Source: Octopus vulgaris (Eukaryota). Taken from it: DNA of 64,000 bases. Every line of letters begins with the position of its first letter. The first letter of the stretch is position 1. Under the pieces are notes generated by a model that saw nothing but the letters and a program-made list of their open reading frames with translations, did no database searches and was not told the origin of the DNA. Location of the stretch: positions 28,520,001-28,584,000 of the forward strand of contig OX597837.1 in assembly GCA_951406725.2 (NCBI GenBank). Direction: 5' to 3'. This document shows positions 4,793 to 63,625 of the stretch, piece by piece. The translations under genes and the position numbers were made by a program.

Positions 4793-4824
<32 letters not shown>

Positions 4825-5095
4825 TAGAATGGTTTCGAATTTTGGCATAAGGCCAGCAACATCGGGGAGGGGTAAGTCGATTACATCGACCACAGTGCTT
4901 AACTGGTACTTATTTTATCGACCGCGAAAGGCTGAACTGTAAAGTCAACTTCGGCGGAATAATATTAATAATAATAATCCTTTCTGCAATGGGCACAAGG
5001 CCTGAAATGTTGGAATGGGTTAGTCGATTACATCGACCCTAGTGGCTCACTGGTACTTAATTTGTCGACCCCGAAGGACGAAAGGCAAAGTCGAT
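4825..5095 (-). mobile_element. Two truncated MetaSINE-like copies with (ATT)n-type tails
   Basis: Meta domain present, tail differs from family B. A similar copy lies at ~62680-62940. Confidence 0.75.
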
Positions 5096-12770: not shown

Positions 12771-13184
12771 TATTTCTTTACTACCCACAAGGGGCGAGAG
12801 ACAGAGGACAAACAAGGACAGACAAATGGATTAAGTCGATTATATCGACCCCAGTGCCTAACTGGTACTTATTTAATCGACCCCGAAAGGATGAAAGGCA
12901 AAGTCGACCTCGGCGGAATTTGAACTCAGAACGTAGCGGCAGACGAAATACCTATTTTTTTACTACTCATAAGGGGCTAAACACAGAGGGGACAAACAAG
13001 GGCAGACAAAGGGATTAAGTCGATTATATCGATCCAGTGCGTTACTGGTTGGTACTTAATTTATCGACCCCGAAAGGATGATAGGCAAAGTCGACCTCGG
13101 CGGAATTTGAACTCAGAAAGTAACGGCAGACGAAATACCGCTAAGCATTTCGCCCGATGTGCTAACGCTTCTGCTAGCTCGCCT
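12771..13184 (-). mobile_element. Tandem MetaSINE-like copies (family B)
   Basis: Meta-type domain gtcgactttgcctttcatcctttcggggtcgat occurs twice, joined at aaata|ggtatttcg. Confidence 0.85.
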
Positions 13185-13461
13185 ATCGTAACAATGTTGA
13201 TATAATTGTTGCTAAAATAGACACAGGGTTTTAAGTTGTGTTGGTAGTAGGTTATTCGATTGCATTAACCCCAGTAAATTACTGGTACTTTGTTTTCTCG
13301 ACTTCGAACGCATGAAAGGCAAAGTTGTCATCAGTGGAACTTCAACTCAAATTTCACGTAGCATTTTATCTGAAACACAAGTGATTTTATCAACAATAAT
13401 AATAATAATCCTTTCTATTGTACCTTTTTTTCTCTCTTTCTCTCTTCATTAGTCCTTATTC

Positions 13462-15362
13462 ATGGATCCAAAGAAAGCTAGCAGTGATACTGGTAAAGGA
13501 AAAAGAAAAATTGGGAGAAAACAATTGAAGTGAAGAAAGAAACCATCGCAAAACACAAAATCTCTCTGATATAAATCGACAATATCTACCATTCCTTAAA
13601 ATAAGGAAGTGACAAAAGCAGCTGATGTTACAAAAATAATGACTGTTATTAATAAACAAAGACCAAAGATACTCGAAGAAGTGGAAAAATTATTGCTTAT
13701 TTTTATAAAGGAGAAGCAGTTAACAGATGACAGTATCAGTGAAGCATTTATTTGGAAGAAAGCATTAGAAATTTATAATGATCGTGTAAAAAGAAAACAA
13801 AACCCCTGGTACAAGTGCTGAAAGTGATACTTTGAATTCAAAGCTAATAGAGGCTGGTTCGAGAAATTTAAGTGAAGTGGAACGCATGCTGTGATTAGGC
13901 ATGGAGAGGTGGCGAGTTCAAACAAGGAAGCGGCTGAGAAATTTGTGATTGAGTTTAGTGACTTGACAAAAGGAGGTTATCTCTCCCAACAGGTGTTTAA
14001 CGGGGATGAAACAGGATCATTTTGGAAACGAATGCTAAATAGGACCCATATTACTAAGGAGGAAAAAGCGTTGCCAGGATACAAGCCAATGAAACATAGA
14101 CTCGCTCTTTTGCTTTGCGTCAACGCAAGTGGCGATTTCAAGGTCAAGCCATTGCTTGTTAACCATTCCGATAATCAGAGGGTTTTCAAAAGAAAAAATG
14201 TTATGAAGAATAAATTGCTTGTTATGTGGCGAGTTACAGGCAATTTTTTATTGAATGGATTCATAAAGTTTTTTCTCCGAATACTAAAAAATATCTGCAG
14301 GAAAAAATGCCTTCTCGTGATAGACAATGCTCCCGCTCACCCTCCAGGTTTGGAGGATAACTTAGTTGAAGAATTTGATTTTATTCAGGTCAAATACCTG
14401 CCACCTAACGCAATTGCTCTAAAACAACCAATGGTCATTGAAAACTTTAAGAACCTTTATTCAAAAGCCAAAGCCCTGTTTCGAAAGTGTTTTTAAGTCT
14501 CAGAGAATTTTGGAAATATTTCAATATCCTGAATTGTGTTAATCTTATTGATAATGCATGGAACCATGAATTCAGCATGGAGGAAACTTTGGCCAGACTG
14601 TGTACCAGAACGAGACGACTTTGAGGGTTTGAGACAGCTACAAGTACTGCTGCTGTCGAGGAAGTTGCAATTGTTGATGATAATGTCTCTATGGGAAAAA
14701 CTATGGGTTTGAATGTCGACAGTGAAGATACTGAAGAGCTGGTGGAAGACCGCCGTAGTGAGCTTACCACCGAAGAACTCGTACACTTTCAAAATGAACA
14801 GCAAAAGACTTTGACTGAGGAAATGTCTTCTGAGGAGGTGGAAGGAAAGGAGGATGTCCCAAGTTCTTTAATCAAAGAAATGCGTGTTAAATGAGGTGAT
14901 GTGCAAAGTTTTGTGGGAAAATATCACCCTGAAACAGTGGTAGCAAATAGAGCGGTGAATGAGACAATTTCATGTCTCATTCTAGAAACATTTTACAAAA
15001 GCAGGCAAAGCAACTAACATTGAACAGGATTTTACTGTAAGAAAAATGAAAAGAAACCCCAGAGAAAGATTTACCTGAGCCAAAGAGACATATATGGGAA
15101 GAAACCCCCGAAAGACAGTTACCAGACATTTTTATGGAAGGGGACTCCCCTTCTAAGAAATAACACTATTTGTGTGTTGTTTACACTCTGATTAAACGTT
15201 TTTATACTAAAATATATAGTGTAAGCATGTAAATATGCATTCATCTGGTGCTTGGAAACGAATTAATCTCTTTTACATTAATTGTAATGGGAAAATATGA
15301 TTCGGTTCTCGAACGGTTTTAGAACAGACTTTCAGAACAAATTATGGTCGAGAACCGAGATT
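13462..15362 (+). mobile_element. Tigger/pogo DNA transposon remnant (TIGD1-like transposase pseudogene)
   Basis: MDPKKAS start, CENP-B-type HTH pieces, HGEVASS, QQVFNGDETGSFWKRM, LLVIDNAPAHP and YLPPN, ending GDSPSKK* near 15162. Stops and frameshifts throughout. Confidence 0.9.
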
Positions 15363-15936: not shown

Positions 15937-16331
15937 TTAAAGGTAGCCAAATGGCAAAATTGTGTGTCGGAAAAGGCGACGTTTCTTCCGGCTCACAAAA
16001 ATTTTTTCCCACGACAGTTCTGGACCTCAGTTATGAATTCATTTGCATACAGCCAATGGTTGAGTTCAGTAGCAAATGTGCGTTATAACAAAATCTAACG
16101 GTTCTACGGGTTAACAGGGTTGACAAATGTGATATTTAGTGTATAAAGTGAATGGGGAGCTGCTCACCGATGATGCCCTTAAGTATTGCCAATTTGCGTA
16201 ATTTACTAAAAAATGTAAATGAGTGTGGTTTCCTAATTTTTTGACTGATTTTGTATATTCCTAATTTAAAATGTTGGTGTTGATCTGGAGACATCGTAAT
16301 CAATATGGTGTGTCGTATTGCGCCCTCCTTG

Positions 16332-16564
16332 TGGAGGCGCGTGTCTTAGTGGTTAGGGTGTTGAACTCATGATCGTAAGGTTGTGGTTTCGATTCCTGGA
16401 CCGGGCGATGCGTTGTGTTCTTGAGCAAAACACTTCACGTTGCTCCAGTCCACTCAGCTGGCAAAAATGAGTAATCCTGCGACGGACTAGCGTCCCGTCC
16501 AGCTGGGAAATTTCTATGCCGCTGAACCTAGCATGGCTCAAGAAGAAACATTTATTTTATTATA
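16332..16564 (+). mobile_element. tRNA-derived SINE with V-like domain
   Basis: A and B boxes, cctgcgacggactagcgtcccgtccag motif, and 16-bp TSD tattgcgccctccttg (16316-16331 and 16565-16580). Confidence 0.85.
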
Positions 16565-16589
16565 TATTGCGCCCTCCTTGCATATATCA

Positions 16590-19500
16590 ATGGGTGATGT
16601 AGTTTATCCATGGATGCGACAAAGACCATCTAGTCATCCTGGGGTGGAGGTGGGCTTGTTTTGTGAGTCCGCAGATGGCTAAGTGGGGCCAATCTGCGCC
16701 CGAAAGAGTCTTTGACAGTGTCGACAGGAAATGGTAGCGCTTGCTACAGGGTTGTTAGCTCTGTTCTTCCTGGCTTGTCTGCGGTCTTCTGCAGCAGCGA
16801 TCCTATTGGTCTCGCATGTGTTGGCACCCTTGTGGACAGCTGATCGCCACCCTTCTCTGTCTAGAGCAGACTGCTCCCAAGTGTCATGGTCGATGTTGAA
16901 GGCTTTCAACGAGGCATTCAGTGTGTCCTTAAAGCGCTTCTTCTGGCCGCCTTGTGAGCGCTTTCCCTTTTGCAGCTCGCCAAAGAGCAATCTTTTTGGT
17001 AATCGATCGTCTGACATACGAGCTACGTGCCCTGCCCAGCGAAGCTGAGACTGCATCAAGATGGTATGGATGCTGGGCAGGTTAGCACGTATTAGTACCT
17101 CGGTGTCCGGGATCCTGTCCTGCCACTTTATGCCGAGAGGTTTTCTAAGGCGTATTGTATGAAAGTGGTTCAGCTTCCTGGCATGACGACAGTAGACCGT
17201 CCAGGACTCGCAGCGTTGTGAGAACAACAGCCCGGTACACCTTGATCATGATGGTGATCCAGTTCCTGTCACAGACAGTCTTGCGTAGCTTACCTTGGTG
17301 AGTCTAGCGTTGATTTCGTCATCGACGACAACATTTCAAGAGTGTGCTGCCAAGGTAGGTGAACTTGTCCACCGCGTTCAGTCGCTGCCCGTTGATGGTG
17401 ATGTTGGGTTCAACGTAGGGCTTGGTTGGAGCTGGCTGATACCTTACCTCAGTTTTTTTTTTGTATTGATAGTAAGGCCAAAGTTGTTGCCGGCACCAGA
17501 GAACAAGTCAACGCTGCGATGCATGATGGACTCAGTGGCAGCATTGAGAGCGCAGTCATCGGCGAACAGGAGGTCGTTGACGGTGTCTACTGAAACCTTG
17601 GTTTTCGCTTTGAGCCTCCCGAGGTTGAAGACTGAACCGTCGGACCGGTACTTGATGCCTATGTCTGTGTCCCTGAAAGCATCTGTCAGCATGGCTGAGA
17701 ACGTAAGGCTGAACAAGGTGGGAGCAAGGACACATTCTTGTTTCACTCCGTTGGAGACAGGGAATGGATCAGAGGTTTCTCCGTTGTCCTATTCTCTTGC
17801 CAACATGCCATCGCGTAGTTGTCTTACGATGGTGATGAATTTTCTGGGGCATCCATACTTCGCCAAGATTCTCCAGAGACCTTCTCTACTAACGGTATCA
17901 AAGGCCTTGGTCAGGTCGATGTGGGTGGAGCAGAGGTCGACGTTCTTCTCCCGACACTTCTCCTGCAGCTTGTGCTTCTTTCGCTTGTGCTTCTTTGTAG
18001 ATGGCCCAAGGTATTCCATGGCTGTTTCGTACAACGTCACCCGGAGTGCAGCCCAGGCTTCTTCAATATCCTTGCCTTGTAGCACAATGGGGTCCAAGCG
18101 TTGCTCCAATGTATCGGTAAGTAGCTGCTTGTCGTTGTTCTTGTCTTACTCGCAGCAAACACCATGTCGATAGTCCCACGCTCTTTCCAGAAGCTACACT
18201 GGATCTCAGGTAGGAGACCCTACTCTAGGTGTGCAATGAGGCGGTCGAGCAAAACTCTAGCCAGGGATCTTGCCTGGATCTTGATGGACAGCAGTGAAAT
18301 TCCGCGATGATTGTCGCAGATCTGGTGGTTTCCATTTCGCTTGTAGAGGTGGATGATGGAGGTGTCCTTGAAGTCTTGAGGCACTGTCTCGTGCATCCAG
18401 ATGAGCTGAAACAGCTGGTGAATTTTCCTGGTCAGGGCCATACCGCCTCCTTTGAATACTTCAGCTGGGATGGAGTCTGGACCAGGTGCTTTGCCACTGG
18501 ACAGTAGGCGGCATGCTTTCTGAATTTCCTCCAAAGTTGGTTCGACGTCCATTGACTCCTCAACGGGGACTTGAGGTAGCCTATCAATGGCTCCACCATT
18601 GATGGTAGAAGGCCTATTCAGGACGCTGTCGAAATGTTCAGCCCATCTCTCTAATACCTTTTCCTTGTCGGTAATCAGTGTTTCGCCGTCAGGAAGAGAG
18701 ACAGTGTTCTTGCAATATTAGGGCCGTAAACTTCCTTCAAGCTGTCATAGAAATTCTTCATGTTATTTCTGTCTGCAAAGCCCTGGATCATGTCTGCTTT
18801 GCTAAGCCAGGAATCCTGCATCTGGCGCAACTTCGTTTGGATTTTGCTCCGTACAATCCGCAGTCTGTCCTTCTTTGAAACTGACTTGGGATCAGTGAGG
18901 TGAGCTTTGTAAACCCGATGCTTTTTCCTTTAGTAGTTGTTTGATCTCCGCGCAGTTCTCATCAAACCAGTCCTTGTGCTTCTTTGTAGATGGCCCAAGG
19001 TATTCCATGGCTGTGTCGTACAACGTCACCCGGAGTGCAGCCCAGGCTTCTTCAGTATCCTTGCCTTGTAGCACAATGGGGTCCAAGCGTTGCTCCAATG
19101 TATCAGTAAATAGCTGCTTGGCGTTGTTATCCTTCAGTTTGCCGATGTTCAAGCGTTTTGGTTCTTTCCTATTTTGTGGTCGTCTCTTGGGCTGAGTTTG
19201 GATACAAGAAGGCCGTGGTCTGTCCAGCATTCTGCGCCACACATGGTCTTCATAACTCGTACGTCTTGTCTGTCCCTCTTCCTTATGATAACGTAGTCGA
19301 TGAGGTACTAGTGCTTTGAGCGTTGATGCAACCATGATGTTCTGCTGCGGGTGGGCAGGCTAAAGATGGTGTTAGCGACCAGGAGGCCTTGCTCTGCACA
19401 GGTCTGGAGGAGTAGCAGACCGTTGCTGTTGCAGTTGCCAACTCCGTGTTTCCCAATCACTCCTTCCCAGGAGACACTACCACGACCAACTCTCGCATTG

Positions 19501-20985
19501 AAGTCACCTAGAATGATGAGTTTATCTGCGCGGGGAGCCGCGGTGATGACAGAGCTCAAGTCTTCATGATGACAGAGCTCAAGTCTTCATAGAACTTGTC
19601 CTTGGTCTCATTTGGATTCGTCATGGTGGGGGCACAAGCGCTGACAATGGTGTACTTCTGTCCGCGACAGAAGTACACCATTGGCGTCATTAGGCGATCA
19701 GTCATAGCTTTTGGGGGAACCAACCAACTTGCCAGCCAATGTTTGACTTAACTGCAAAGCCAACTCCTGCCTCTCTTCTCTCTTCAGGTCCACATCCACT
19801 CTAAAAGAAAGTGTACCCTGCACCATTTTCCCTGTTGTTCGCCTTCGCCCTGCATCCTGGTTTCGCAGAGAGCAGCAATGTCGATGTTATATCTGGCGAG
19901 TTCATTTGCTATGAGTGCTGTGTGTCTCTGAGGGCTCTCCGACTCGTCTATGGCGAGTTCATTTGCTATGAGTGCTGTGGGCTCTGGGGTCTCTCCGACT
20001 CGTCTATATCAAGAAGCGTACTAACGTTCCAAGCAGCGAGGATGAGTGGTGTACTCTTCGCTCCTTTTCTTTGTTCTTTGTTTCGACCGCAGTGTGTCGG
20101 GTCCCCTCCAGTCGCGGTAGGCTGGCTAGGATAGGCGGCGAGCTGGCAGAAACGTTAGCACGCCGGACGAAATGCTTAGCGGTATTTCGTCTGCGTTACG
20201 TTGTGAGTTCAAATTCCGCCCAGGTCGACTTTGCCTTTCATCCTTTCGGGGTCGATAAATTAAGTACCAGTTACGCACTGGGGTCGATGTAATCGACTTA
20301 ATACCTATGTCTGTCCTTGTTTGTCCCCTTTGTGTTTAGCCCCTTATGGGTAATAAAGAAATAGGTAGGCTGGCTAGGATAGGTGGAGCAGGAAATGTTT
20401 GGGACACCTTTTCTAGTCCGCTCCTCATGCCATGGGGGTGAGCAGTGTGTTCCTAAATAAGACTGCTCAGTCGCCCAGACGGCTGCCGAAATCCACTGCT
20501 GCTCCAGGCCAGTGAATAGCGACCCTGTGGCCCTGATCCGCCTGTGTGCAGGTTTGCTGCTACGACTTCCAGTGTACCCACACCTGTCAATTCGTCGCGT
20601 GCCTGTCGCCACAGGATTTTGGGATAAAGAGGTGGAAAGAAGGATGAAAGATGACTTGTAGCGAGGAAACTTTATTTAAAGTGAGGAAGGGTTGCGCATC
20701 ACCGACCTCACTCTCTCGTCTGAGACGGTTTTAACCAGTGACAAGACCAGATCGAGACGACTGGGGACAGAACCAGATGCAGTGAATGACCAAGATGTCC
20801 TATAGTGCCTCATCTTGCCCTATGCACTCTACGGTGCCCTGTTGTAACCGCCCTCTTCTCCGTTGAAACCGTTCTGGTGGTTTCTTCTGTAGAATGAGCC
20901 GGCTTCAGTCTTCGTATGCGTGGGTAGGCAAGCCCTAACTCGCCGAAGGTTTAAGACCGATCGGCTACCCTCACTTGGTTTATAT
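16590..20985 (-). mobile_element. RTE-clade LINE, near full length, decayed and rearranged
   Basis: EN (LAAWNVSTLLD, LGDFNARVG, NSNGLLLL), RT (KAPGPDSIPAE, DLTKAFDTVSR, KQECVLAPTLF, LFADD) and C-terminal QLRWAGHVARM...CRHCQRLF. Confidence 0.93.
20134..20363 (+). mobile_element. MetaSINE-like SINE B inserted in the RTE 5' region
   Basis: 18-bp TSD ggtaggctggctaggata at 20116-20133 and 20364-20381. Confidence 0.9.
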
Positions 20986-21387
20986 TATGAAATATATAAT
21001 AATTTTATGAAAAAATTATGAAAAAAAATATATTTGCTTCAGACAATTTATATGCATAGCATTTATATGCATAGCAGTTGCAAAATGAAGTCTTTTGAAA
21101 AGTATTTGTGGACTTTTTCTTCAGTGGGTATCTTCATAGCACAATGGGGTCCAAGCGTTGCTCCAATGTATCAGTAAATAGCTGCTTGTCGTTGTTATCC
21201 TTCAGTTTGCCGATGTTCAAGCGTTTTGGTTCTTTCTTATTTTGTGGTTGTCTCTTGGGCTGAGTTTGGATACAACAAGGCGGTGGTCTGACCAGCATTC
21301 TGCTCCACACCGATAATTGCACGTATAAATGGAAGGATTCAAGTGAAGAACAACCACATATTCTCTAGTTTAGGATATCCTACATGT

Positions 21388-21681
21388 GGAGGCACATGGC
21401 CTAGTGGTTAGAGCGGCGGACTCGCGGTCGAGGGATCGTGGATTCGAATCTCAGACCGGGTGATGTGTGTGTTTATGAGCGAAACACTTAAGCTCCACGA
21501 TGCTCCAGCAGAAGGTAACGGTGAACTTCTGCTGACTCTTTCGCCACAACTTTCTCTCACTCTTTCCTCCTGCATATTTCAGCTCAACTGCGACGGACCA
21601 GCGTCCCGTTCCAGGTGGGGGAATCTATACGCCAAGGAAACTGGGAAACCGGCCCTTATGCGTAGATCGAGAAGGAACAAA
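21388..21681 (+). mobile_element. tRNA-derived SINE (family C, V-like 3' part)
   Basis: tRNA-like head; TSD gatatccta(g)catg. Confidence 0.8.
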
Positions 21682-22890
21682 GATATCCTAGCATGAAGTA
21701 GCTTTGGATTATCACAGCAAAAATTATAATTGTTGTGTAAACTCGAGAGAGTAAAATTGATTTTATATCTCTTTATATCTATTAACGTTTCTGCCAGCTC
21801 GCCATCTTACCAAATGCCACCAAGTGTCGATCCACCCACAAGTTATGTACACATGGATTAAATCAGGTTTTGGAGAAAACAAGGTAGTCAAAAATGTGGA
21901 AAAGCCATATATGCCAGGCCTGACTGAAGACTGAACCGTCGGACCGGTACTTGATGCCAATGACTGTCTGTGTCCCTGAAAGCATCTGTCAGCATGGCTG
22001 AGAACGTAAAGCTGAACAAGGTGGGAGCAAGGACACATCCTTGTTTCGTATCACCTATGTCAATAAGATTTCAGGTTCATAGTGACCAAGTTTTAGGTTG
22101 TTTTCGCACAATTTGGACTAAATCAGCCACTAAAAACAGGCAGAAGTTCCCAAGAACAAAGTAAAGAAAAAATGTTGTGAACTTGTCCGTGATAAACATA
22201 GCATGATATGCAAGCGTGAGGATTTGGATTTTTAGCCCCAAAATACGATTCCACATCATTGTTCCAATAACAGATTCATCCTTGCTCATGCGACATTTGT
22301 ATAAAACAAAAGATGCCCAAACACGGATGGCTCCATATATCCGCATTAAAACTAAATGTGGTGCTTCTATAGTCGTCCCTTCACTCGCCTGTCTGCGAAG
22401 AAACTCGTTCGGGAATAACAGACTAATCTCAGTCTGAGCATAGGTACCTAATGTTAATTCCATATAGAGATGGTGCTCAATTTATCTATGAGGAGGCGGG
22501 GTTGGATGTGGTGCTTATGTGAGACCTGCTATGCTGTACTCACAGAGTAGCATACATCATTCTATGCCTGACTGGCACAGCATGTGGATTTTCAAGGTGA
22601 TATCTGATTGGCTGTATGCAAATGAAATTATAACTGGGGTCCGGAACTCTCGTGGAAAAATTTTCGCGTTGCCTTTCATTCGCTAAACCGCAGCAGTTGT
22701 ATCATAACTACTCTACAAACCCACCGCTAATAGCGTGGAATAACCCAAAGCTGTATTTAGGAGTTATATTAGAGCGTATGTGTCTGTGTGTTATAAACCA
22801 ATGTTATAAACCCAAACTCGAATTTCAAAGTTTAAAAGGTTTTAATCGACTAAAAATACAGCAATATACAATACAAAGATTGCTAAATTG

Positions 22891-23528: not shown

Positions 23529-24125
23529 ACTGGCTGTGTGGTAAGTAGCTTGTCTACCAACCATATGGTTCCGGGTTCAGTCCCACTGCGTGGCACCTTG
23601 GGCGAGTGTCTTCTACTATAGCCTCGGGCCGACCAAAGCCTTGTGAGTGGATTTGGTAGACGGAAACTGAAAGAAGCCCGTCGTATATATGTATATATAT
23701 ATATATATGTATGTATGTGTGTGTGTTTGTTTGTGTGTCTGTGTTTGTCCCCTAGTGTTTATGTCCCCGATACTTAGCGGTTCGACAAAAGAGACCGATA
23801 GAATAAGTATTGGGCTTACAAAAGAATAAGTCCCGGGGTCGAGTTGCTCGATTAAAGGGGCCGACCAAAGCCTTGTGAGTGGATTTGGTAGACGGAAACT
23901 GAAAGAAGCCCGTCGTATATATATATGTATGTGTGTGTGTGTTTGTGTGTCTGTGTTTGTCCCCTAGTGTTTATGTCCCCGTTACTTAGCGGTTCGGCAA
24001 AAGAGACCGATAGAATAAGTACTGGGATTGCAAAAGAATAAGTCCCGGGGTCGAGTTGCTCGATTAAAGGCGGTGCTCCAGCATGGCCGCAGTCAAATGA
24101 CTGAAACAAGTAAAAGAGTAAAAAA
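23529..24125 (+). mobile_element. SINE A with internal tandem duplication
   Basis: Body repeated from ~23859. Confidence 0.85.
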
Positions 24126-24461: not shown

Positions 24462-24629
24462 TTTACTCTTTTACTTCTTTCAGTCATTTGACTGCGGCCA
24501 TGCTGGAGCACCGCCTTTAGTCGAGCAAATCTACCCCAGTACTTATTCTATCGGTCTCTTTTGCCGAACCGCTAAGTGACGGGGACGTAAACACACCAGC
24601 ATCGGTTGTCAAGCAATGCTAGGGGGACA

Positions 24630-24676
<47 letters not shown>

Positions 24677-24829
24677 CACATATATACAACAGGCTTCTTT
24701 CAGTTTCCGTCTACCAAATCTACTCACAAGGCTTTGGTCGGCCCGGGGCTATAGCAGAAGACACACTTGCCCAAGATGCCACGCAGTGGGACTGAACCCG
24801 GAACCATGTGGTTGGTTAGCAAGCTACTT
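24462..24829 (-). mobile_element. SINE A, 3' part (interrupted by two Tx1-type elements)
   Basis: Stops at aagctactt. The missing head accacacagccactcctgcgcct is at 32303-32325. Confidence 0.9.
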
Positions 24830-25057
24830 TATTTCATATAATTTGCCATTTAGGCATTTACAAAGAGGGGACAAACAAGGACAGACAAATATAAAGGGTG
24901 AAGTAGCTTAACACAGTTACAATTTTCGAATGAAATTACGGATAAGATTATAAACAATGAGTTTTACGAAGACAATGTTTAAAAATATTAATGATCATGT
25001 CGAAGGACGGACACCCAGCCATCCGGGTAGAACCTTTACTTTCTGATCCGGTCACAC

Positions 25058-28000
25058 TTACCTGGTGCCAAACATACCCATCTTGCATGCTACAGGCTTC
25101 CATCTTTTCACAAACATATCTCGTGACAGACACCACTTCTCCAGCCTGATTTTGCTACTGAGGTGGTAACTAAAAAAGTTAATCAACCCCTGGCCGGAGA
25201 CAAAGGTGCCTGTCACTATACCTTTCGTACGCGTCTTCCATACTGTTTCTTTCAGTATGGCTACTACACAGAAAAAACAAGCCTTTCTTTCCCTGTTAAG
25301 GAAAGGGGGCGGCACAATCTCGATGATAGACTCAGCTGATAGCTGTACTCTTCCCATCACTGACAACAGTTGTTCAACAAAAGCTATCAGTCCCGATAAC
25401 TCCGGACACTCCACGAATGCGTGCAAGACGGTCTCCCTATCCTGCTCACATCGCGGGCATGTCGGCGAGACGGCACTACCGTGCCTTGACAGCTTGTCGC
25501 GAACAGGTAAAGCCGCACGGAAACACTGCCAGGCCAGGGATTTCTGGTAATTATCCAGATACCCCGGCCCGAACGTCCTCCGGAACAGGTTGACCAACTG
25601 ATTTTCATTGTAGCCCAGGGTCTCCCCCAAGGCGTCTTCGGACTTAACCTCCACTAACCCGCTATAGAAATCCGTGGTGGAACTCCTGTTGCCGGCGTTG
25701 CCCACCCGAGAGAGTAGCTGGAGCGCCTGACGGCACTCCAAATGCCATTCACTCAGTTTAGGTCTCCGCTTGATCCATGCACCGATGTCCGTTAGGGATG
25801 TTAACTGGGGAAGGTAGAACCGGACGTGCGGTGACCACACCTGCTCTCCATCCAGGTAAAGCCAGAGGTGCCTCAACCTTAACGCGAGTTTTCACATCCT
25901 CAGCCAAGGCATCCCTAGCCCACCCTTTAGCGGTTTCTGGCAGCAGACAGAGCGCTTTACAAGTGGCTTTCCTCCTTTCCACAAAAATCGGAAAAGGATT
26001 CTCTCCAACTTGTTCAGCCACAAATCGGGGCAAGGCACCACGGTCAGACGGTAGGTGATTACTGATGCTATAAACATCTGCACCACCTCCGCCTTCCCTA
26101 GCAGGGATAACGCCCGCCCAGACCAGGTCTGGGTTAGAGCGGTCACCTTGTTGGCCACCTCACTCCAATTTTTCTCAATCTGGAGGTCTGGCCCGAACCA
26201 GACTCCGAGCAGCTTAACAGGACCTTCCGTCCAACGCCCTACGACGTTATTGGACGGCATCGGCTTGCCCCTCCAGGTGCCGAGTTGCAAACCGACCGAC
26301 TTGTCCTTGTTAACCTTTGCTCCTGCCACCGCCTCGTAGCTTTTGATGGCCTCTTCCACCACTGGAAGCTGGCCTTCGTCTGCCACGATGATGGAGGTGT
26401 CATCCGCATACGCCGTAGCTCCTCTTCCACACCATAGATCATGCGGCGTGCCCCCTAGTGCCTCCAACTTCCGCAGCAAAGGCTCAAGAGCCAATACGTA
26501 TAGGAGCGAGGACAGGGGACACCCTTGACGAACTGAACGCTCGATCCTGAACGGCTTCGAAAAGGAACCGTTCACCTTGACTACAGACTCGATGTCGCTA
26601 TACAAAGCAGCGATCCAACCTCGAAAGGTCGGGCCAACCTCGAAAGGAGGACCGCCGCCAAGTACCGATGGTCGACCCTATCAAATGCTTTGGACTGGTC
26701 TAAATGTACCAGTGCTCCCCCTGCGCCAGAAAGCTTCCCCACCCTCTCTAAGGAGTAGCGTATAAGGTGGAGATTGTCGTAGATCGTTCTGCCAGGGATA
26801 GCGCACGTTTGCGCTTCCCCGACAAGTTTGTCCACGACCCGCGCCAACCTTTTTGCTAGCACCTTGGCCAGAATCTTTAACTCTGTGTTCAACAGAGTTA
26901 TGGGCCTGAAGTTCCCTATCTCGTCCCCCTTGTTCGGGTCCTCCTGATCAACGTCACAACCCCCGGCTCGCAGACTTGGGAATTCTCCCATTCTGCTGCC
27001 AGTTTGCGTAGACGCTAGCCAGCAGGTGCCCGAACAAGTCTGGCATACTTTTATAAAATTCATAGAGCAGACCATCGAGACCCGGCGACTTCTCCCCGGG
27101 GCACTTGCCCAACACCTCGATTACCTCCTCGGCTGTGATTGGCCCTTCACAGCACTCAGCCTCCCGTGTCGAGAGGCGCGGGCCACCAGACAGGAAGTCC
27201 CTAAGGGCCTCACCATGATCCAGCGTCCCGCACCTCCCGAACAACTCGGCGAAGTGCTTGTGAAGTGCCTCACACATCTCGTCCCGCTTCTTGATCGTGC
27301 ATCCGTTTTCATCAACAAGAGACCCAATTGTGGCATCGTTTCCACACTGTGTTTCTATCGTACGGGCCCATCCGGCAACATTAATTCCCTCACGGCCCAA
27401 TGCTCGTACTTTAGCCCGAACTCTACATCCCTCATGTTTGGTTTGCCGTTCTCGCCGCTAAAATGTGAGATGCAGAGCCCAACCTCAACGCCTCCTCTAA
27501 GTTCTTAACTAGTTGCCCTTCTATTCTAGCCCTATCTAGTCTTAGTTGTTTACTAAATCTAATGGACTCGAATCGAATGGCTCTTTTGAGGGCGAACCAC
27601 CACCGATTATTAACCACGGCTCCGGTTAACGCCCTCTGCACTAACACCTTAATCCGGCTACGGTATGCCTCGCGTGTCAAAATAGACTTGTTCAGCTTCC
27701 AGTAGCCGGTTCCTATCTTAAGTGTGCTATCTATGTCCAGTCTACACGTGACCATTCTATGGTCAGTATAGGGCACCTGGACGAGCTGTGGATAACTAAA
27801 ACTAGACTTATCTCTTGTTCTTATCACTATCCTGTCTAGATAAGACTTGAACCTTCCGTCGCCACTCATCCAGGTCCACTCTGGGACGTTCGGATGGTCA
27901 AGTCTGTAACGATCTGCCAGCTGAAACCGCTTAATCAGATCCACGAGACGTGAGTTTACTTTCCTATAGATCGAGCCAACGCTATCGATGTGAACGTCAA

Positions 28001-28436
28001 CGATAGCATTAAAGTCCCCTAATATCACTAAAGTCTTCGACGTCACGAGAAAGCCCTCTAGGCGCCGATAAAAATCAGTTTGGAAACCTCTAGCACAAGG
28101 TGCATAGAGTCCGATCAGCCTGAAGGCCTTACTGCTGTATGTCACATCAAGGACGACCAGCCCACCTTCTGGGTCTACATAGACTGTACTTGTCTGCAGA
28201 GCCAAGTCTTTACGGATCAGTACCACTACACCCCCTCGCCCTCCGGTCTGGCCAGGAGACATGATTTTCTCGTAGCCATTCAGGAGAGGCGAGAAGGTTT
28301 GTAGGCTGTCCAGCTTGGTCTCTGTAGCAACCATCACATGTATATCATGTGATCTGAGGTCGTCGAAGAAACAAGCCTGCTTCCACTTCGAACTCAGACC
28401 ACGCACATTTAAACAACCAAGGTTAAGCGAAGCCAT
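25058..28436 (-). pseudogene. Tx1-like ORF2: AP endonuclease, reverse transcriptase and C-terminal zinc motif, frameshifted
   Basis: MASLNLGCLNVRGL, GDFN, SYLDR and TDH (APE); KSPGLDG, FRPITLLN, KAFDRV, VRQGCPLS and AYADD (RT); CPRCEQDRETVLHAFVEC. Confidence 0.93.
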
Positions 28437-28453
28437 TACAAAAAGTAAAAGTT

Positions 28454-29906
28454 CTACTTACATTTCGTTGGAGAGGTGGGGGCCGACCTCACCACACGTT
28501 TGTGGGCCCCTTCTTTCTCCTCCTTCTTCAAATAGTCCGGCGAGTTCGCGATATGCCGGATGGCGTTTGGGTGTCTGTCTTTTAATTGTTTGAACGTTGT
28601 TTCCGCAATCCACGCGTATCTCTCATTTCGATCTTTGTATTTGTTGTACAGTCTTGCTGACTGATGCCGAACCACAATATCGTTTATGTATTTGTTTTGT
28701 GTGTCGAATTCAATTAATATGGGTTCGTTTTTTTTTTGTCTTCTTTTTCTGGGCCAGTTGAGCGGGATTTTTTTTTTCGTGTCTGTGGTGTGTCTTTGTT
28801 TTCATTATTTTTTATAGGGGATGTGGACGGGGATGATGCACGAATTCTTTTACGAACTGGTGTAAATCCCCCCTCTGATACTTCCATGGTATCGTCTGGG
28901 GTAGCAATAGTTTGTTCATTAGGCGCCGCAGTTTTTAAGGGGGTGGGAGGTTTTAATAATGTAGGGGTTTGTGCGTGCGAGGGCTGGGTTTTTTCTTCAG
29001 TTTGTTTTGGGGTTGGCACCGTAACAGCAGGAGTGGGATTTTTTGTTTTTGTAGGGGTAAGTGAGTTTGCAAGGGTAGGGATTTTTTAATTATCTGAGGG
29101 GCCTGGTGTCTGCGGTTTCTTTTGCTTGTCTGGACAGTCTACACGAATGTGGCCCTTTTTGCCGCAGGCGTAACAGGTGGGTTTTCGGCCTTCGACCTGT
29201 ACCCTGAGGGCTACGTTCTCGCCCACGAGTATCACCGGGTACCTGTGCCCAGCCATTCTCAGGAAGGAGCTGCAGGTCCTCCGGTGTTCCTTGAATTAAT
29301 ATATTAATGTTACGCCCAAGCCAATATAGAGGGGCAGAGCATGTTACTTGTAGTATTTTAATTTTGTCCGCCCTTTTATATAACAGGGCGGCCACTACCT
29401 CTACCGGATCTACTTCCGGCGGGGCTTCTGCAATCCTGACCCGGGACGTCCTGCGTCCCCTATAGCTTGGGAAAAGTACCACCTCCTTGGTTTTTAGGGG
29501 GTTCACAGAATGCCCGCGGGCCACCTCTTCCCCCGAGAAGCGGACATCCACAGTGCCATATGCCCGTCCCCTGGCGACGTACACGATGTCCTTCCAAATC
29601 GGGGACAGGCATTTCTCGATGGTGTTTTTTTCAAAGTGTTTGAATCTTCTGCTTTGTGGAACAGAAGGTTTTAAGCACTACGGTCCGCTTCTCGGTCTCC
29701 ACGATACTGGCGGAGGGTGATATTTTAACATCACCACCCTCCTCTTGCATTCTTTTAAATAGCTCGACGAGCTGATTGACAATGATGTCAATGTTCTCGG
29801 TAGCCACTGTGGCTACCGCAGAAAATTTTTTAACATTGCTCTCCTCAAGAGCACTACTTTCGTGAATAATCTCAACAGACATTATTCTGTTGAAATTAGA
29901 CAACAC
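28454..29906 (-). pseudogene. Tx1-like ORF1 (nucleic-acid binding, CCHC zinc knuckle), frameshifted
   Basis: ORF pieces 29631-29906, 29090-29584, 28714-29019 and 28454-28675. Knuckle CYACGKKGHIRVDC near 29135-29176 in a shifted frame. Confidence 0.85.
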
Positions 29907-30296
29907 AAAAATTACGAATATTGGTTTCCCACAAAACTGGGAAACCTATAGAAAGTTTTTCTTCCAAAGTAGTTCAATAAGTGGTAAAAAGCAGTTCAAA
30001 AAATTCCAATTCCCACCCCCATTCGGGGGAGGGGCACGAAAATAGTCTGGCAGGACTATATATAGTCACGTAGAAAAAAGCCACAATGGCTAACAGTTCA
30101 ATGGTAAGAAATTATCCAATTATTCCCCAGTAAAACCGGAGAACAAGACAGTTCAACAACGTTCAAAAACAAATTTTCAGTAGTAAAAATTCAACAATTA
30201 ACAACACAGCAAAACTCTTACCGGGAAGAAAACGCGTCCAAACCGTAGTAAGGTAAGCAAAGTCATTCTTCAGTCAGTGAGGTTAGAAAGCTACTT

Positions 30297-32288
30297 TATT
30301 TTATATAATTTGCCACTAGGGCAGCACACAGAGTAGTAGCTACGGGCTGGACAAGGACATTAATGGATGATGGTGGTGGTGGATGAAGATGGTGATGGGA
30401 GAAGTCGAAAGCGCCCGCCGACTTTCGCTTCTCTAAAACAATGTTTCAATAAATACATTTAATAAAATGTTCACAATGATTCAAATTACATAAAAAATGT
30501 TCAACAATTCTCCTCGTCAGGTCCCCGAAGCAAATTGTCTTGCCGCCTGCAGACAACTCTGCGACGACAAGTCGGGGCCTGCAAAGAGAAAAGTAAAATC
30601 TTTCCTTTCAAAGGTCTCTGCGACCCTTGACAAAGTATCTTCCGTTACTTTTTCCGCAGCTACCCACGGAGGCCATAACGGACTCCTTGAGCCGACCGTG
30701 CCCTTACGTTCTCGGTCACCCAAGCCATTCAAAAATATTTCCACCTCCTCTCCCTTGTGGTAAAGGAGGAGAAGCATCTCCTCTTCACAGGAAGGGGCCT
30801 CACACTGCTCCGTCAGTGGCACACTTCCTACTGGCGGAGCCTTGTCCGCGGGTGGCACACATCCCACCTGCGGCTCCGTCGGCGACACAAAAACGTCAGT
30901 CGTCCGACCTCTCCTTTTTCTCCTCCTTCTTTTGGGGGAGACTGCTGACCCAGGGGACTCCGTCACCAGACACGGGGGATTGCTATCCCCCTCCGCCCCC
31001 TGAGCGTTCTTTGGCGGGCAACCATTGTTGCTCGCCTGTCTCTTTCTTTTCGTGGAGGCAACCTCCTCCACGACTTCCACCGTCTCCCCCTCCAATGAGG
31101 GGGCGGCGGGCGCCTTTTCCCCTTTCTGCTCCGGGGCACCACCACGGCCCCCGGGACAATTCTTCCTGATATGTCCGGGCTTCAGGCACAGGTGACACTT
31201 GGTGGGAGCGACCCTCGAGTATCACCGGGTACCTGTGCCCAGCCATTCTCAGGAAGTCCGGGAATTTCATTTCTCCCACAGCCACCGGTGTCCACAGGGT
31301 CAAAGTTGCCTTTGACCCCTCCCAGGCGACCGCGGGAGCCATTTTCACACTCAGTAGTCTGGGTCCGCTATCCCCCAGGCCTCGCCGGATGGTCTTCTCG
31401 ATCCATTCCGCCTCCGTGCCCGGGGGCAGCCCACACACCCAGGCTCTTTTTACTTTTCTGCCACAATACGAGGGGAGGAACAAAATTTCCTCTCCCTCCA
31501 GTGGCTCGCTAGCAAATCTGCTAGCTTCCTCGGGGGTACCAAACAGCAACCACACCGTTGCAAATTTAGTCCCCCGAGAAATAAATTTTATAGTTGGCAG
31601 GTGGTCCCCCAACTCTTTCTCTATAGTATTCCTGTCGAAGAGGGCAATGGCTCCACGCGACCTAGAATAGGTTCGTAGGACCACCGTCCTCTTCTCAAGA
31701 CTTTCAATCCACTGCTTGGGTGGGACGACCTCCCATTCCAAAGCGGTGGTTTCTTTTGTTGCCATGTTTTTTTGGGTTTTTTTTTAAATAAATGTATTCA
31801 GAATAAAACTAAAAAACGAGAAGAAAAGGAAATCCGAAGAAAGTCACAATGAAAAAAGGAGAGAGTCAAATAAAGTTAAAAAGAAAGTCAAATAAAGTTA
31901 AAAAGAAAGTCAATAACACAGCAAAATCCTTTTGGCCATTTGGTACTCCCGGCCTAAATCGAACCAGGATCGCACAACTTCCACAAAAATTGGTGTAAAA
32001 TTGGTAGTTCTTCACAGCACAATACAATTCTCACAATTCGAAGACGGATACTCCCAAAAAATTTTCTCAGCGAGAAAAATATATTTGCCACATGTCGGCA
32101 GAATCAGAATTCTGAATCCAGTAGGACTTCCTGCATGTAAAAAATAATTCTCAACAAAAACTCCCACTGGACCCAGAAAACAGAATCTTACCTTACATGG
32201 GGTTTCCAAAGTTTTCAATTCAAGACGGCTTCAAAAGCACATCTTCACCGCTTCAGTGTCAAACACAACACTGACTCGCACATGCGCA
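30297..32288 (-). mobile_element. ORF1-only (HAL1-like) non-autonomous Tx1-related element
   Basis: ~520 nt 5'UTR, one ORF1 and a ~220 nt 3'UTR whose end resembles the neighbour's (ggcaaattatat-aaata). No EN or RT. Target repeat gtaagaagctactt at 32289-32302. Confidence 0.8.
30517..31765 (-). pseudogene. Divergent ORF1 (~415 aa, one frameshift near 31200) with CCHC knuckle
   Basis: EKRTVVLRTY...NTIEK...LFLPSYCGRK aligns with the neighbour's EKRTVVLKTF...NTIEK...LFPSYRGRR. CHLCLKPGHIRKNC follows the shift and runs into ORF 30517-31095. Confidence 0.8.
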
Positions 32289-32334
32289 GTAAGAAGCTAC
32301 TTACCACACAGCCACTCCTGCGCCTGGTTATACA

Positions 32335-32740
32335 TTTTTATTCTTTTACTTGTTTCAGTCAATTGACTGTGGCCATATTGGAGCATCGCCATTTAGTCGA
32401 AGAAATCGATCTCTGGACTTATTCTTTGTAAGCCTGTGGCTTATTCTGTCGGTCTCTTGCCGAATCGCTAAGTTACGGGGACGTAAACATACCAACATCG
32501 GTTGTCATGCGATGGGGGGCGGGCGCAAACACAGACATAAACACACGTAAATATATTCATATATATATATATGACGGGCTTCTTTCAGTTTCCGTTTACC
32601 AAATCCACCCACAAGGCTTTGGTCGGCCCAAGACTTTAGTAGAAGACACCTGCCCAAGGTTCCACGCAGCGGGACTGAACCCGGAACCACGTGGTTGGGA
32701 AGCAAGCTTTTTGCTACACAGCCACGCGCCTGCGCCTATG
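32335..32740 (-). mobile_element. SINE A
   Basis: Full-length match to the other copies. Confidence 0.85.
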
Positions 32741-33156: not shown

Positions 33157-33399
33157 AAGGCGGCGAGCTGGCAGAAACGTTAGCACGCCGGGCGAAATGC
33201 TTACCGGTATTTCGTCTGCCGTAACGTTCTGAGTTCAAATTCCGCCGAGGTCGACTTTGCCTTTCATCCTTTCGGGGTCGATAAATTAAGTACCAGTTTC
33301 GCACTGGGGTCGATGTAATCTACTTAATCCGTTTGTCTGTCCTTGTCTGTCCTTGTTTGTCCTCTCTGTGTTTAGCCCCTAGTGGGCAGTAAAGATATA
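33157..33399 (+). mobile_element. MetaSINE-like SINE B
   Basis: TSD ggtatttcaca at 33146-33156 and 33400-33410. Confidence 0.9.
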
Positions 33400-33718
33400 G
33401 GTATTTCACAGGTACTTCATTGTATCTTTCCTTGGAAGGGTGAAAGGCTAAGTCGATCCCACTATGATTGGAATTTAGAAGGTAAAGATACAGAACTCCC
33501 AAGGTACCCTACTGACTTTACCAATCCACCGCCCTTAAGCCGGTTTCTATAGTAATGATAACACATTATTTACATTTGACGGATATTTGTCCTCATCTTG
33601 TTTGTTGTTACCACAACGTTTCGGCCGATATACCCTCCAACTTTCTTTGCTCGACTAAAGGCGGTGCTCCAGCATGGTCACAGTCAAATGACTGAAGCAA
33701 GTAAAAGAGATATATACA

Positions 33719-34949: not shown

Positions 34950-36001
34950 TTCCCTTCTTCGTTCTAGGGAGAAGAGTTTTAACACTTTCAGTCTTTCCCA
35001 GTGGTTGATACATTACATTGAGACGAATTTCTTTGTATAACTTCTTTGGATTACTTTGAGTTCTGTCGTTAATTTTATATTGCGTGGTGATCATACTTTA
35101 AAAGCAGTAGTCCAAGTGGCTGAGGACGTAGGCCCTCCAAAGGACCATCATTTTCTCCTTTTCTCTCGTTTTGAAAGTTCGAAGGATCCATGAAGCTAGC
35201 CGTCTGCATTTAATTACCAAATTAGTAATACGCACCTGGAAAGCTGCATCACTGATCATGTCAATGCCCAGATCATGCTCTGATTTTAATTCAGGGATTG
35301 CAATTCCCCCCGGGCCAGAGTATCGTGTCTGCATGTCGTTCAGCTTTGTGTGCTGGTAGCGCAGGGCTTGGAATTTTCCTGCATCAAACTGCATGTTGTT
35401 GTCCTCAGCCTACCAGTATATTGTGTGCAGATGCGCAATATTTCGAGGGTTTTGTATTGTTTGAGAGACTTTAGTCTCATCTGAATAGCTAGCAAGGGTA
35501 GCTATCTGAACTGCTGAGGGCATTACTGACAGGGCCATTATAAATAACAGTGGCCCTAAGAAAGTTCCCTGCGGGACATCACTCACTATTCGTGTTTCCT
35601 TTGAGGTGGTTCCATTTGAAGTGCTTGACGTTTATGTTTTAGAAAGTCGTGTAGCCATTCTAAGTTTTCTGACTATGCCGAGATCACGCAGTTTGTAACA
35701 TATCATACCATGGTCGAATTTTTCAAAGGCTTTTGCAGAGTCGAGATACATCCATACTTGTGTTGTTTACCAGCTGTTTTAACACCCGACCATAATGCTG
35801 TAAGAGATATATCATACAGCTGGTTGAATTCCATGCTGGGTTTCAGTCAGCAAGTCATTTTCTTCAAGGAACACAATTTTCTTGCGGACTGTTCGTTCAA
35901 GGACTTTACTGATGTGTGAGCTTAGAGAGATAGGCCTATAATTTTTAGCATCTGCTCTGCTTCCTCCTTTATGGATAGGGCATATTATTCCTTCCTTCAG
36001 T
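34950..36001 (-). mobile_element. CR1/L2-group LINE RT fragment
   Basis: ICPIHKGGSRADAKNYRPISLSSHISKVLER and WILRTFKTREKEKMMVLWRAYVLSHLDYC. Confidence 0.85.
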
Positions 36002-47751: not shown

Positions 47752-47929
47752 CTGGAAAGAAAAAAAAAAAAAAAAAAAGAAGGAAAATGATAATAAATGT
47801 AATTCTCTTCAGAAAATTTGTAAAAAAAAAAAAATTAAAAAAAAATTTTTTTTTAATTTTAAAAATCTAAAAGCGGTGCTCCAGCATGGCCACAGTCAAA
47901 TGACTGAAACAAGTAAGAGAGAGTAAAAT

Positions 47930-48335
47930 ATAGGCGCAGGAGTGGCTGTGTGGTAAGTAGCTTGCTAATAAACCACATGGTTCCGGGTTCAGTCCCACTG
48001 TGGGGCATCTTGGGCAAGTGTCTTCTACTATAGCCCCAGGCCGACCAAAGCCTTGTGAGTGGATTTGGTAGACGGAAACTGAAAGAAGCCCGTCGTATAT
48101 ATATATATACATATATGTGTGTGTGTGTGTGTGCGTGTATGTTTGTGTGTCCATGTTTGTCCCCCTAGCATTGCTTGACAACCGATGCTGGTGTGTTTAT
48201 GTCCCCGTCATTGCGGTTCAGCAAAAGAGACCGATAGAATAAGTACTGGGCTTACAAAAGAATAAGTCCCGGGGTCGAGATGCTTGATTAAAGGCGGTGC
48301 TCCAACATGACCGCAGTCAAAATGACTGAAACAAG
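47930..48335 (+). mobile_element. SINE A
   Basis: Full-length match. Confidence 0.85.
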
Positions 48336-48674
48336 TTGTGAGAGAGAGAGAGAGAGAGAGAGCAAGCTGAATACTAAAAGATTAAAGCAGATGTCTGAAT
48401 TTGATCTTAAAACACCACAAAGTATCCAATCCCAGGTTCAATTCCTACCTGATCCACCACTTTCAGTTGGTGCATTTTTTTTTTTAATTTTTTTTTTTTT
48501 TTCTTTGACCCCAAAAAGGATGAAAAGCAAAAGTTGACTTAGGTGGATTTTCGAACTCAGTATAGAGAGAATCTGAACAAATACCACGACACATTCTGCC
48601 TGACACTCTACTGACTCTTGCCAATTTTTCATCTTTCTGGTACTCTTAAGAAATAGTTAGAAAATAAATAACAT

Positions 48675-57891: not shown

Positions 57892-58117
57892 TTAATGCAC
57901 ACACCCTACATGCAGGTGTAATGTTGTTGTTTAGCCCCAGCAGTCCTATATTCCATACATAACCATCCTGTAATCTACCTACAACTTTATCTGATGTCGA
58001 TTTGGCAGTCATTTATAACAGTCAAATAACTAAATAAAGGCTCCCCTGTTGATTCAAGAATGTAAAATTATATTAAAACCAGTAACTGAAAATACTGCCA
58101 TACCACTGATGGTATAC

Positions 58118-58319
58118 GGTGGCGAGCTGGCAGAGACGTTAGCACGCCGGACGAAATGCTTAGCGGTATTTCGTCTGCCGCTACGTTCCGAGTTCACATT
58201 CCGCCGAGGTCGACTTTGCCGTTCATCCTTTCGGGGTCGATTAAATAAGTACCAGTTACGCACTGGGGTCGATGTAATCGACTTAACCCATTTAGCCCCT
58301 TGTGGGCAGTAAAGAAATA
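58118..58319 (+). mobile_element. MetaSINE-like SINE B (short tail deletion)
   Basis: TSD ggtatac at 58111-58117 and 58320-58326. Confidence 0.85.
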
Positions 58320-59828
58320 GGTATACAGAGGTCAAGAGCATAGAAGATACTTCTTCTATGACTAAGTCAGCCTGGTAGAACCCATCCACCCATAAACTAT
58401 AGGAAAAATGGGAGCTGACTGGGGTAGGTTCAATAACAGGATATTTATTTGTTGCTTAATTTTTTCAAATCTATTTCGTAGGTCCCTCTAAGGAATGGGT
58501 TATAGGGGAGGCATAGGAGAAGAGTATAAATAGGATAAGGAGTAAGCTAAGGGAACATTCATCAATTTAATAGTGCTGCACCCGCTTGTTTACAATATTG
58601 AATGATCTCTATCCTACAGTAAATGGACTGAGTCGTCTCAGAGTTAAAAGCCTTGACAACAAACAAAACACAGTATTGGGTTCAGGTGAGAAACCTTTCA
58701 CCAATCTGTAAATTATTAAGACATTAAAACGAGCGATTATATATACTGTATTTTGAAATAATAGCATGAAATTCAATACCAAAAAAATTTCTCACGAAGA
58801 TATATATGTCTAAAATAGTTCTGTTGCAGTGGTTAACTATAATCAGTATGAGAAGACAGTACCAATGCAGTAATAACAGAATGGTAACAGATGGCAGAAG
58901 TTTAAGGAACTGTTAGTAGTTAAGAGGCTCCCAGTAAAGGAATTATTATCTAGGCATTTCAACCAGCAAGTAGTAATAGCTGCCAAATTTAGTCGTTTCT
59001 CATTTAAATTATCATCATAAAACTAAAACTAAGCATTGACCACTAACAAGAATCTCCCAAGTAGCGTAAGAGTCATTTCTTCAACAAATTTGAGCCTTAC
59101 CACAATCTAAAAGAGAAGTAAAAAGCTACAGGTTAAACTGCCAGTGCAAACTTGCAAATTAGAAGTAGATATACAGTAGAGTGTGTGTTTGTGTGTGTGT
59201 ATTATCATCATCATCATCATTTAACGTCCGCTTTCCATGCTAGCATGGGTTGGACGATTTGATTGGGGGACTGGTGAGCCAGATGGCTGCACCAGGCTCC
59301 AATCTGATCTGGCAGAGTTTCTACATCTGGATGTCCTTCCTAACGCCAACCACTCCGAGAGTGTAGTGGGTGCTTTTACGTGCCACCTTGTCAAACTTAG
59401 TATGTGTGTGTGTGTGTCTGTGTGTGTGTATAAATATATCATTAATTAAATATATTCTGTTAGAATATTATACACTGAATTTATAATGAGTGCTCTTTGT
59501 ATAAAATATCAGAAATATTAATACTATAAAATATTTAGACATTAATACGAGTGATTATATATACTGTATATTAAAATAATAGCATGAAATTTAATATCAG
59601 AAAAATTTCTCACAAAGATATATATGTCTAAATTAGTATTGTACTAAAAATATATATAAATATATGAAACATGACAGCTTGAAAGTTTGTTAGTTAAATT
59701 TTATTTATTTATTTAAATTTAATTTACCAAAGTCGACCTGTATGAATCTAAAGCAGTAAATTTTAATCTATTTTCAAAAATACTTTCCTTTATATTTTTC
59801 TAATTTTAAATCAACATTCAATATATTA

Positions 59829-63590: not shown

Positions 63591-63625
<35 letters not shown>

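Follow-up and report, generated by a model that had tools for sequence, protein, structure and literature searches.

SINE B, a tRNA-type short interspersed element of Octopus vulgaris, probably took its 3' tail from a LINE of the L1/Tx1 clade and is mobilised by that LINE lineage; among the explanations weighed below this is the best one for the 64,000-nt stretch of DNA analysed here (the window, contig OX597837.1). A LINE-like end with a hairpin, together with insertion at GGTA sites, suggests that SINE B borrows the copying enzyme of the LINE. At the level of sequence, the homology of the tails, the point of the tail swap, the register of the predicted hairpin, the target duplications and their GGTA are demonstrated.

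SINE B copies and their setting

The window is repeat-rich eukaryotic DNA with a G+C content of 39%, and tandem-repeat masking covers 21% of it. It holds five copies of SINE B (query 20116–20383), with pairwise identities of 87.5–93.5%. They are short, interspersed and non-coding, as expected of SINEs in general, and three of the five have target duplications. The copies and their parts are as follows:

20134..20363, plus strand: full-length SINE B copy, 230 nt, with a tRNA-type head, a shared body and a LINE-type tail
20116..20133, plus strand: 5' copy of its target duplication, beginning with GGTA (3' copy at 20364–20381)
20308..20335, plus strand: block matching the LINE 3' UTR in 26 of 28 positions
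20339..20351, plus strand: tail hairpin with a 4-bp stem and a 5-nt loop
33146..33410, plus strand: SINE B copy 33159–33399 with the 11-bp duplication GGTATTTCACA
58111..58326, plus strand: SINE B copy 58118–58319 with the 7-bp duplication GGTATAC; 30-nt block absent, hairpin kept
12953..13185, minus strand: SINE B copy, joined by its 3' end to the neighbouring copy at the neighbour's internal GGTA
12771..12952, minus strand: SINE B copy of another subfamily, starting at an internal GGTA; TATT follows its 3' end
21783..21811 (seen at 21803), minus strand: SINE B head fragment, 21 nt; GGTA starts 8 nt upstream

The copy at 33159–33399 sits antisense inside an older sister SINE. The two units of the composite 13185–12771 group with different subfamilies (diagnostic sites 3 vs 1), which disfavours a simple DNA duplication; we infer that the composite fits an insertion whose 5' end was resolved by homology. 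In the SINE B head, A- and B-box-like words, TGGCAGAAACG and GTTCAAATTCC, can be read by eye, while neither ARAGORN nor Rfam found a tRNA in it. Two scans of bacterial and archaeal genomes for outside copies, as a check on contamination, gave no locus and one locus respectively, the latter being a 20-nt chance match.

Older relatives of SINE B were found by a window search with 20116–20383 at 4960, 5094, 13349, 62899 and elsewhere. Older sister SINEs with a B-type head and body and other tails occupy 4800–5094, 13200–13370, 62690–62963, 48500–48600 and 33408–33456, and several of them end in (ATT)n. A 114-bp tandem repeat at 49293–49750 is made of a SINE B-like body fragment. A second SINE family of the window, SINE A, often has its copies head to tail with one another (32336–32739, 47867–48336, 62974–63700), and no clear target duplications were seen at the SINE A copy ends examined. 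The SINEs of the window resemble octopus families, and SINE A and SINE B possibly correspond to two of those reportedly described by Ohshima and Okada in 1994 (OK, OR1 and OR2). Six motifs of the window, searched in the full texts of papers, gave no match, and a search with a single motif found one unrelated paper.

The window also comprises a second, decayed non-LTR element with a reverse transcriptase (RT), at about 16570–20900 on the minus strand, which carries the SINE B copy at 20134 in its 5' region; fragments of it recur near 21140–21310 and 21920–22050. By its motifs, we take this element to be RTE-like. A weak RT-like match in translated searches at about 35500–36000 (minus strand, E about 1e-4) marks another decayed LINE fragment, and a decayed DDE_1 transposase remnant lies at 13876–14867 on the plus strand (E=1.4e-15). 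Yet another tRNA-type SINE, which is neither SINE A nor SINE B and has a CORE-like body, is present twice, at 16311–16560 and 21385–21680.

The family label of SINE B

The sequence-only reading had described SINE B as MetaSINE-like, a label that is not borne out. Two motifs common to BivaMeta-SINE1 and BivaMD-SINE1, as given in an excerpt of the PMC4824008 supplement, are absent from every SINE B body in what was a motif test, not a consensus alignment. The first has 8 matches in the window against 9.9 expected, those within SINE B being antisense and in the head, and the second has 14, none of them in SINE B. MetaSINEs are defined by a 66-bp Meta domain that directly follows the tRNA-derived head; the body of SINE B is unlike the bivalve Meta-domain SINEs of PMC4824008, and the similarity visible by eye is limited to a short GTACCAGT-like word. 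On these motifs the name MetaSINE appears unsupported for SINE B and should be dropped. The label CORE-SINE was tried and rejected as well, on one motif only: a 10-nt bivalve CORE word, with 18 matches in the window including SINE A copies, is missing from all SINE B copies.

LINE Y and element X

The LINE whose end resembles the SINE B tail, Y, lies in tandem with a second element, X, inside a SINE A copy:

24830..30287, minus strand: LINE Y, L1/Tx1 clade, with a broken zinc-knuckle ORF1, a broken ORF2 and a 3' UTR without a repeat tail
25058..28436, minus strand: ORF2 of Y, with APE endonuclease, RT and zf-RVT, in five open stretches
24830..24889, minus strand: 3' end of Y common to SINE B, with a hairpin at 24856–24844
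30297..32293, minus strand: element X, ORF1-only and Tx1-like, in tandem with Y at the same site
32294..32302, minus strand: AAGTAGCTT, the first of three target copies (the others at 30296–30288 and 24829–24821)
24462..24829, minus strand: 3' part of the SINE A copy split by X and Y (its head is 32326–32294)

The placement of Y in the L1 superfamily is secure from its predicted proteins. ORF2 has the Pfam endonuclease, RT and then C-terminal zinc domain that characterise the superfamily; its RT piece matches human L1 with E=1e-15 and R2 with 4e-7; and the top matches of its endonuclease piece are L1, the best solved relative of Y being human L1 ORF2p. A separate search with the endonuclease piece gave one weak match only. 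Within the superfamily, Y is likely a Tx1 element rather than a member of another L1-clade group, because its ORF1 is of the zinc-knuckle type (zf-CCHC, type I, E=2.8e-6, not Transposase_22, and with no RRM match), a type linked to the Tx1 clade in the accessible part of PMC5203782. The nearest database relatives of Y have an RT identity of about 50%. In an RT tree of 50 proteins hand-picked from about 340 and two window rows, built without curated Tx1 or L1 references, Y falls into a 12-row clade of unnamed proteins (support 100/100). This clade lies in an unresolved group holding one 'Transposon TX1 uncharacterized 149 kDa protein', to which the Y RT piece is 36% identical. Names were carried by 1 of 80 and 7 of 120 protein matches in the two relative searches.

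X and Y are 36% identical in their best ORF1 block, and the last 27 nt of X agree with Y in 23 positions (1 of 2000 shuffles as good). Amid these otherwise divergent ORF1 regions the two elements have in common a patch of 44/45 nt, at about 31256–31212 and 29265–29221 (minus strand), possibly a trace of gene conversion, a template switch or an assembly artefact. AAGTAGCTT is present three times, ahead of X, at the junction of the two elements and past the end of Y, and the outer flanks are two halves of one SINE A copy whose overlap is the duplication; two insertion events therefore took place at one site, whether at this locus or in a composite ancestral to it. The 9-bp duplication at 32302, 30296 and 24829 (minus strand) extends to 15–16 bp with one or two differences. 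The tandem placement of two divergent Tx1-like elements at a single nucleotide of a SINE A head suggests that such heads are targeted; one of the nine SINE A heads bearing the Y/X target site is occupied.

The shared tail

That the SINE B tail matches the 3' end of an L1/Tx1-clade LINE was confirmed, on an evidence base of one LINE locus and five SINE ends. SINE B 20308–20335 and Y 24887–24860 (minus strand) are identical at 26 of 28 positions, and the copy at 13010–12981 agrees with the LINE block at 28 of 30. The four complete SINE B tails reach local scores of 43–50 against the last 60 nt of Y, and for each tail none of 2000 dinucleotide shuffles did as well (null means 15–16, maxima 28–33). 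Among 4264 tiles of 60 nt, the Y end is the best one outside SINE B; with a SINE B tail profile it is found at E=1.7e-6, the next non-SINE-B match having E=0.043. The two ends are collinear and both stop at AAATA without a repeat tail, and in the final 30 nt their likeness is far below that of the preceding block.

Sister SINEs have head and body in common with SINE B up to GTAATCGACT, and their tails then differ; the divergence sets in just past this word, near the start of the LINE match. ATT runs end three of the four aligned sisters, SINE B ending in AAATA without a repeat, and the sister tails score only 12–15 against Y. Since the sisters keep head and body yet have (ATT)n tails, the tail was swapped in SINE B. 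The LINE hosting the copy at 20134, the window's other LINE, was rejected as a partner, as SINE B tails score 12–14 on its 3' end.

X bears on the direction of the exchange. It is divergent and has no recognisable 30-nt block, and the SINE B tails match it mostly without significance (12, 267, 321 and 1688 of 2000 shuffles as good), but it has the same hairpin end, so this end is native to the LINE lineage. A LINE tail that is itself a secondary SINE insertion, the check named in the sequence-only reading, is accordingly disfavoured: the tail lies inside the Y duplication, and X shares the hairpin end. Of the Tx1-mobilised SINE proposed there, the tail derived from an L1/Tx1-clade LINE is supported, Tx1 as against another L1-clade group being likely rather than proven.

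After a TG microsatellite, the middle part of SINE A resembles the SINE B/Y block in up to 21 of 23 positions (48138–48164, 23730–23761, 23942–23973, 60037–60011). This likeness is either a relic or a low-complexity coincidence. SINE A middles score 31–36 against Y, below the 43–50 of SINE B, and the block is therefore partly of low complexity.

The tail hairpin

A hairpin with a 4-bp stem and a 5-nt loop is predicted, in register, in the last 30 nt of four of the five SINE B ends and of Y; X folds the corresponding region with a longer stem, and the copy at 13183 has no hairpin. In a seven-row alignment 27 of 28 cells are paired, slid controls giving 25–46%, the hairpin having been read from the same sequences that were used to score it. 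Two pairs are changed on both sides between SINE and LINE, i.e., are compensatory, which by chance would occur about 1 in 16 times; the other two stem pairs are simple identity. SINE B and Y have in common a 3' sequence with a conserved stem-loop, as expected of a stringent SINE/LINE pair, with unremarkable folding energies of the SINE tails: no SINE tail folded more stably than its shuffles (z from −1.13 to +0.43; Y −2.06), and 60-nt folds preferred another structure in three of seven cases. The copy at 58118 has the hairpin and not the 30-nt block; if it lost the block before insertion, the hairpin would be the part that matters.

Target sites

All three SINE B target duplications begin with GGTA, as the sequence-only reading had stated: GGTAGGCTGGCTAGGATA at 20116/20364 (18 bp, or 20 counting a GG overlap), GGTATTTCACA at 33146/33400, and GGTATAC at 58111/58320. 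GGTA directly follows four of the five intact 3' ends, the fourth such junction lying at 12952, inside another SINE B copy; the fifth end (12771) is followed by TATT, not GGTA. The word accounts for 307 of about 128,000 4-mers of the window, and the probability that three random sites share one 4-mer is 1e-4. Among eight SINE A copies none had a GGTA-initial duplication. It does not suffice to regard GGTA as the last bases of the SINE itself, since in all three cases the word is also present in the upstream copy of the target. The preference of SINE B for GGTA targets is real in this small sample.

The extension of this preference to the LINE fared less well. A start of the LINE duplication at (A)AGTA had been claimed; the maximal perfect duplication of Y is AAGTAGCTT, which starts with AAGT, and AGTA is obtained only by assigning one A to the element. 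GGTA begins 3 nt ahead of this start and AGTA one base inside the duplication, and a loose match of the site has a chance of 1.2% (RGTA at offset 0 or 1) to 8.7% (one mismatch to GGTA). An RGTA bias inherited by the SINE from the LINE is consequently possible, not demonstrated: its SINE B half holds as GGTA, and its LINE half depends on a single site.

Proposed mechanism and its rivals

According to the preferred explanation, a tRNA-type ancestor of SINE B would have lost its (ATT)n-ended tail and gained in exchange the terminal ~60 nt of a LINE of the L1/Tx1 clade; PMC4824008 (available text) proposes a model in which new tails are acquired by template switching. SINE B would be transcribed by Pol III into an RNA that has the small hairpin and then AAAUA at its end and lacks poly(A). 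The LINE lineage would supply the ORF2 protein, probably through a sister family of Y and not through Y itself, and this protein would bind the tail and nick where the duplication begins with GGTA. Target-primed reverse transcription would then copy the RNA, leaving duplications of 7–18 bp.

The choice of GGTA might be set by the RNA with the partner being the same: a transcript reading through into flanking GGTA(TTT) would pair with the nicked strand and so select sites. Its master copy could sit in another SINE B head, as at 12952, and Y and X would choose AAGT likewise. Such pairing would account for duplications that, after the same AAATA end, start with GGTA in the SINE and AAGT in the LINE, and for the T that follows GGTA in three of four flanks (background 77/307); two flanks read GGTATTTC, a word present in the SINE B head, and the odd SINE B end continues as TATTT. 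One flank is nevertheless GGTAG, the counts are tiny, and a run of three T's terminates Pol III transcription only weakly. Known systems offer a point on each side, since a strengthening of specificity by target co-transcription is discussed for R2 (excerpt of PMC4494074), whereas the Tx1L endonuclease is itself sequence-specific (excerpt of PMC1950540). Read-through pairing is a live alternative, which we hold to be somewhat unlikely. A single endonuclease preference for RGTA governing both LINE and SINE insertions, the version of the sequence-only reading, is conceivable and deserves a little more credence, short of being probable: GGTA and AGTA flank the start of the Y duplication as described, and two divergent elements each inserted at this site, yet it is one site with a 1-nt ambiguity, R was picked after the fact, and the chance figures given above apply.

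Other readings concern the partner. The 30-nt block could have passed from SINE to LINE, or be a low-complexity coincidence, the true partner of SINE B being an unseen LINE. The SINE A middles matching the block, its absence from X as a recognisable unit and from the copy at 58118, and the X/Y patch, which indicates that local exchange occurs at this locus, are in line with it. Y is, however, matched far better by SINE B than by SINE A, the match runs in register through to the same end and hairpin, and the tail lies within the Y duplication, which makes this reading improbable. More doubtful still is a tail that is only a Tx1-derived relic in copies now moved by a different LINE of relaxed recognition. 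SINE B and Y have drifted apart in the terminal 30 nt, and the window does hold other LINE types; but the hairpin is retained despite changes on both sides, SINE B ends in neither poly(A) nor a microsatellite that could serve relaxed priming, and the eight SINE A copies lack GGTA-initial duplications.

Relation to known systems

SINEs have borrowed 3' ends from most LINE clades, with the L1 clade as the stated exception (PMC3747384, accessible text). The survey by Ohshima in that paper counts 3 tail-sharing SINEs for >800 L1-clade families, all in plants or algae; its pair table, as available, confines tails of this clade to maize, sorghum and Chlamydomonas and has no animal L1-clade/Tx1 pair. 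The pair of SINE B with an L1/Tx1-clade LINE resembles maize ZmSINE2/3 with LINE1-1_ZM and Chlamydomonas SINEX-3_CR with L1-1_CR in a SINE tail homologous to an L1-clade end, and the maize pair also in a hairpin with compensatory changes; those pairs differ in belonging to plant and algal L1 lineages and in their homopolymer ends (same portion of PMC3747384).

In bivalves, V, CORE and Meta SINEs have likewise exchanged tails on a conserved head and body, with stem-loops bearing compensatory changes, the tail homology extending over 35–61 bp at 72–95%; the partners reported in the excerpts of PMC4824008 and PMC11481361 are CR1, CR1-Zenon, L2 and Nimb, with no L1/Tx1 among them. Unlike the bivalve Meta SINEs, SINE B lacks the Meta motifs tested (PMC4824008, supplement excerpt). 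The one SINE group attributed to Tx1 machinery that the literature search turned up is SINEU of crocodilians (with Tx1-Mar), for which the available text of PMC4494074 states that no LINE sharing the SINEU-1 3' end was found. SINE B is like SINEU/Tx1-Mar in being a Tx1-attributed SINE, in preferential insertion into another repeat and in tandem insertions around a duplicated target. SINEU, however, has U1/U2 heads and poly(A) and is linked to Tx1 by common targets, whereas SINE B, which has a tRNA-type head and lacks poly(A), is linked by a common tail, the common target being the unproven part.

As an APE-type L1-clade element with a defined site in a mobile element, Y is comparable to Xenopus Tx1L and to repeat-targeting Tx1 elements (PMC1950540, PMC4494074, both in part), but its site is a tRNA-type SINE head and its specificity is deduced from one doubly used site. 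X, with an ORF1 and a LINE 3' end and no ORF2, is like the half-L1 element HAL1 as presented in part of PMC5786205, and differs in being Tx1-like, with a zinc-knuckle ORF1, and in being known here from one locus.

For Octopus vulgaris, L1-Tx1 families with recent activity, and SINEs that are for the most part unclassified, are described in the accessible part of PMC13282606, and the SINE B tail motif was not found in the octopus repeat supplement. No tail-sharing Tx1–SINE pair was found in the open full-text literature, as far as its texts were available; Repbase, Dfam, subscription papers and preprint supplements lay outside the search, and the pair may already be annotated in Repbase, Dfam or similar. 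L1/Tx1–SINE pairing is rarely seen in animals.

Significance

The bearing of these findings is on transposon biology, the general mechanism being already known. PMC3747384 (available text) does not decide between a stringent and a relaxed mode of recognition in ancestral L1, and an animal Tx1–SINE pair with a common hairpin and no poly(A) is a direct test case for this question. A SINE with a clear target word, moreover, lets endonuclease choice be told from RNA-primer pairing. A wider picture can be put forward tentatively: an animal Tx1 lineage may recognise a 3' hairpin stringently and without poly(A) and target tRNA-type SINE heads, a SINE may have captured its tail and insert at GGTA, including the GGTA of its own head, and read-through RNAs carrying the target word may reinforce the preference. 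If this is true, the L1 superfamily would have a case of tail-specific recognition in animals, together with a SINE–LINE–SINE targeting loop.
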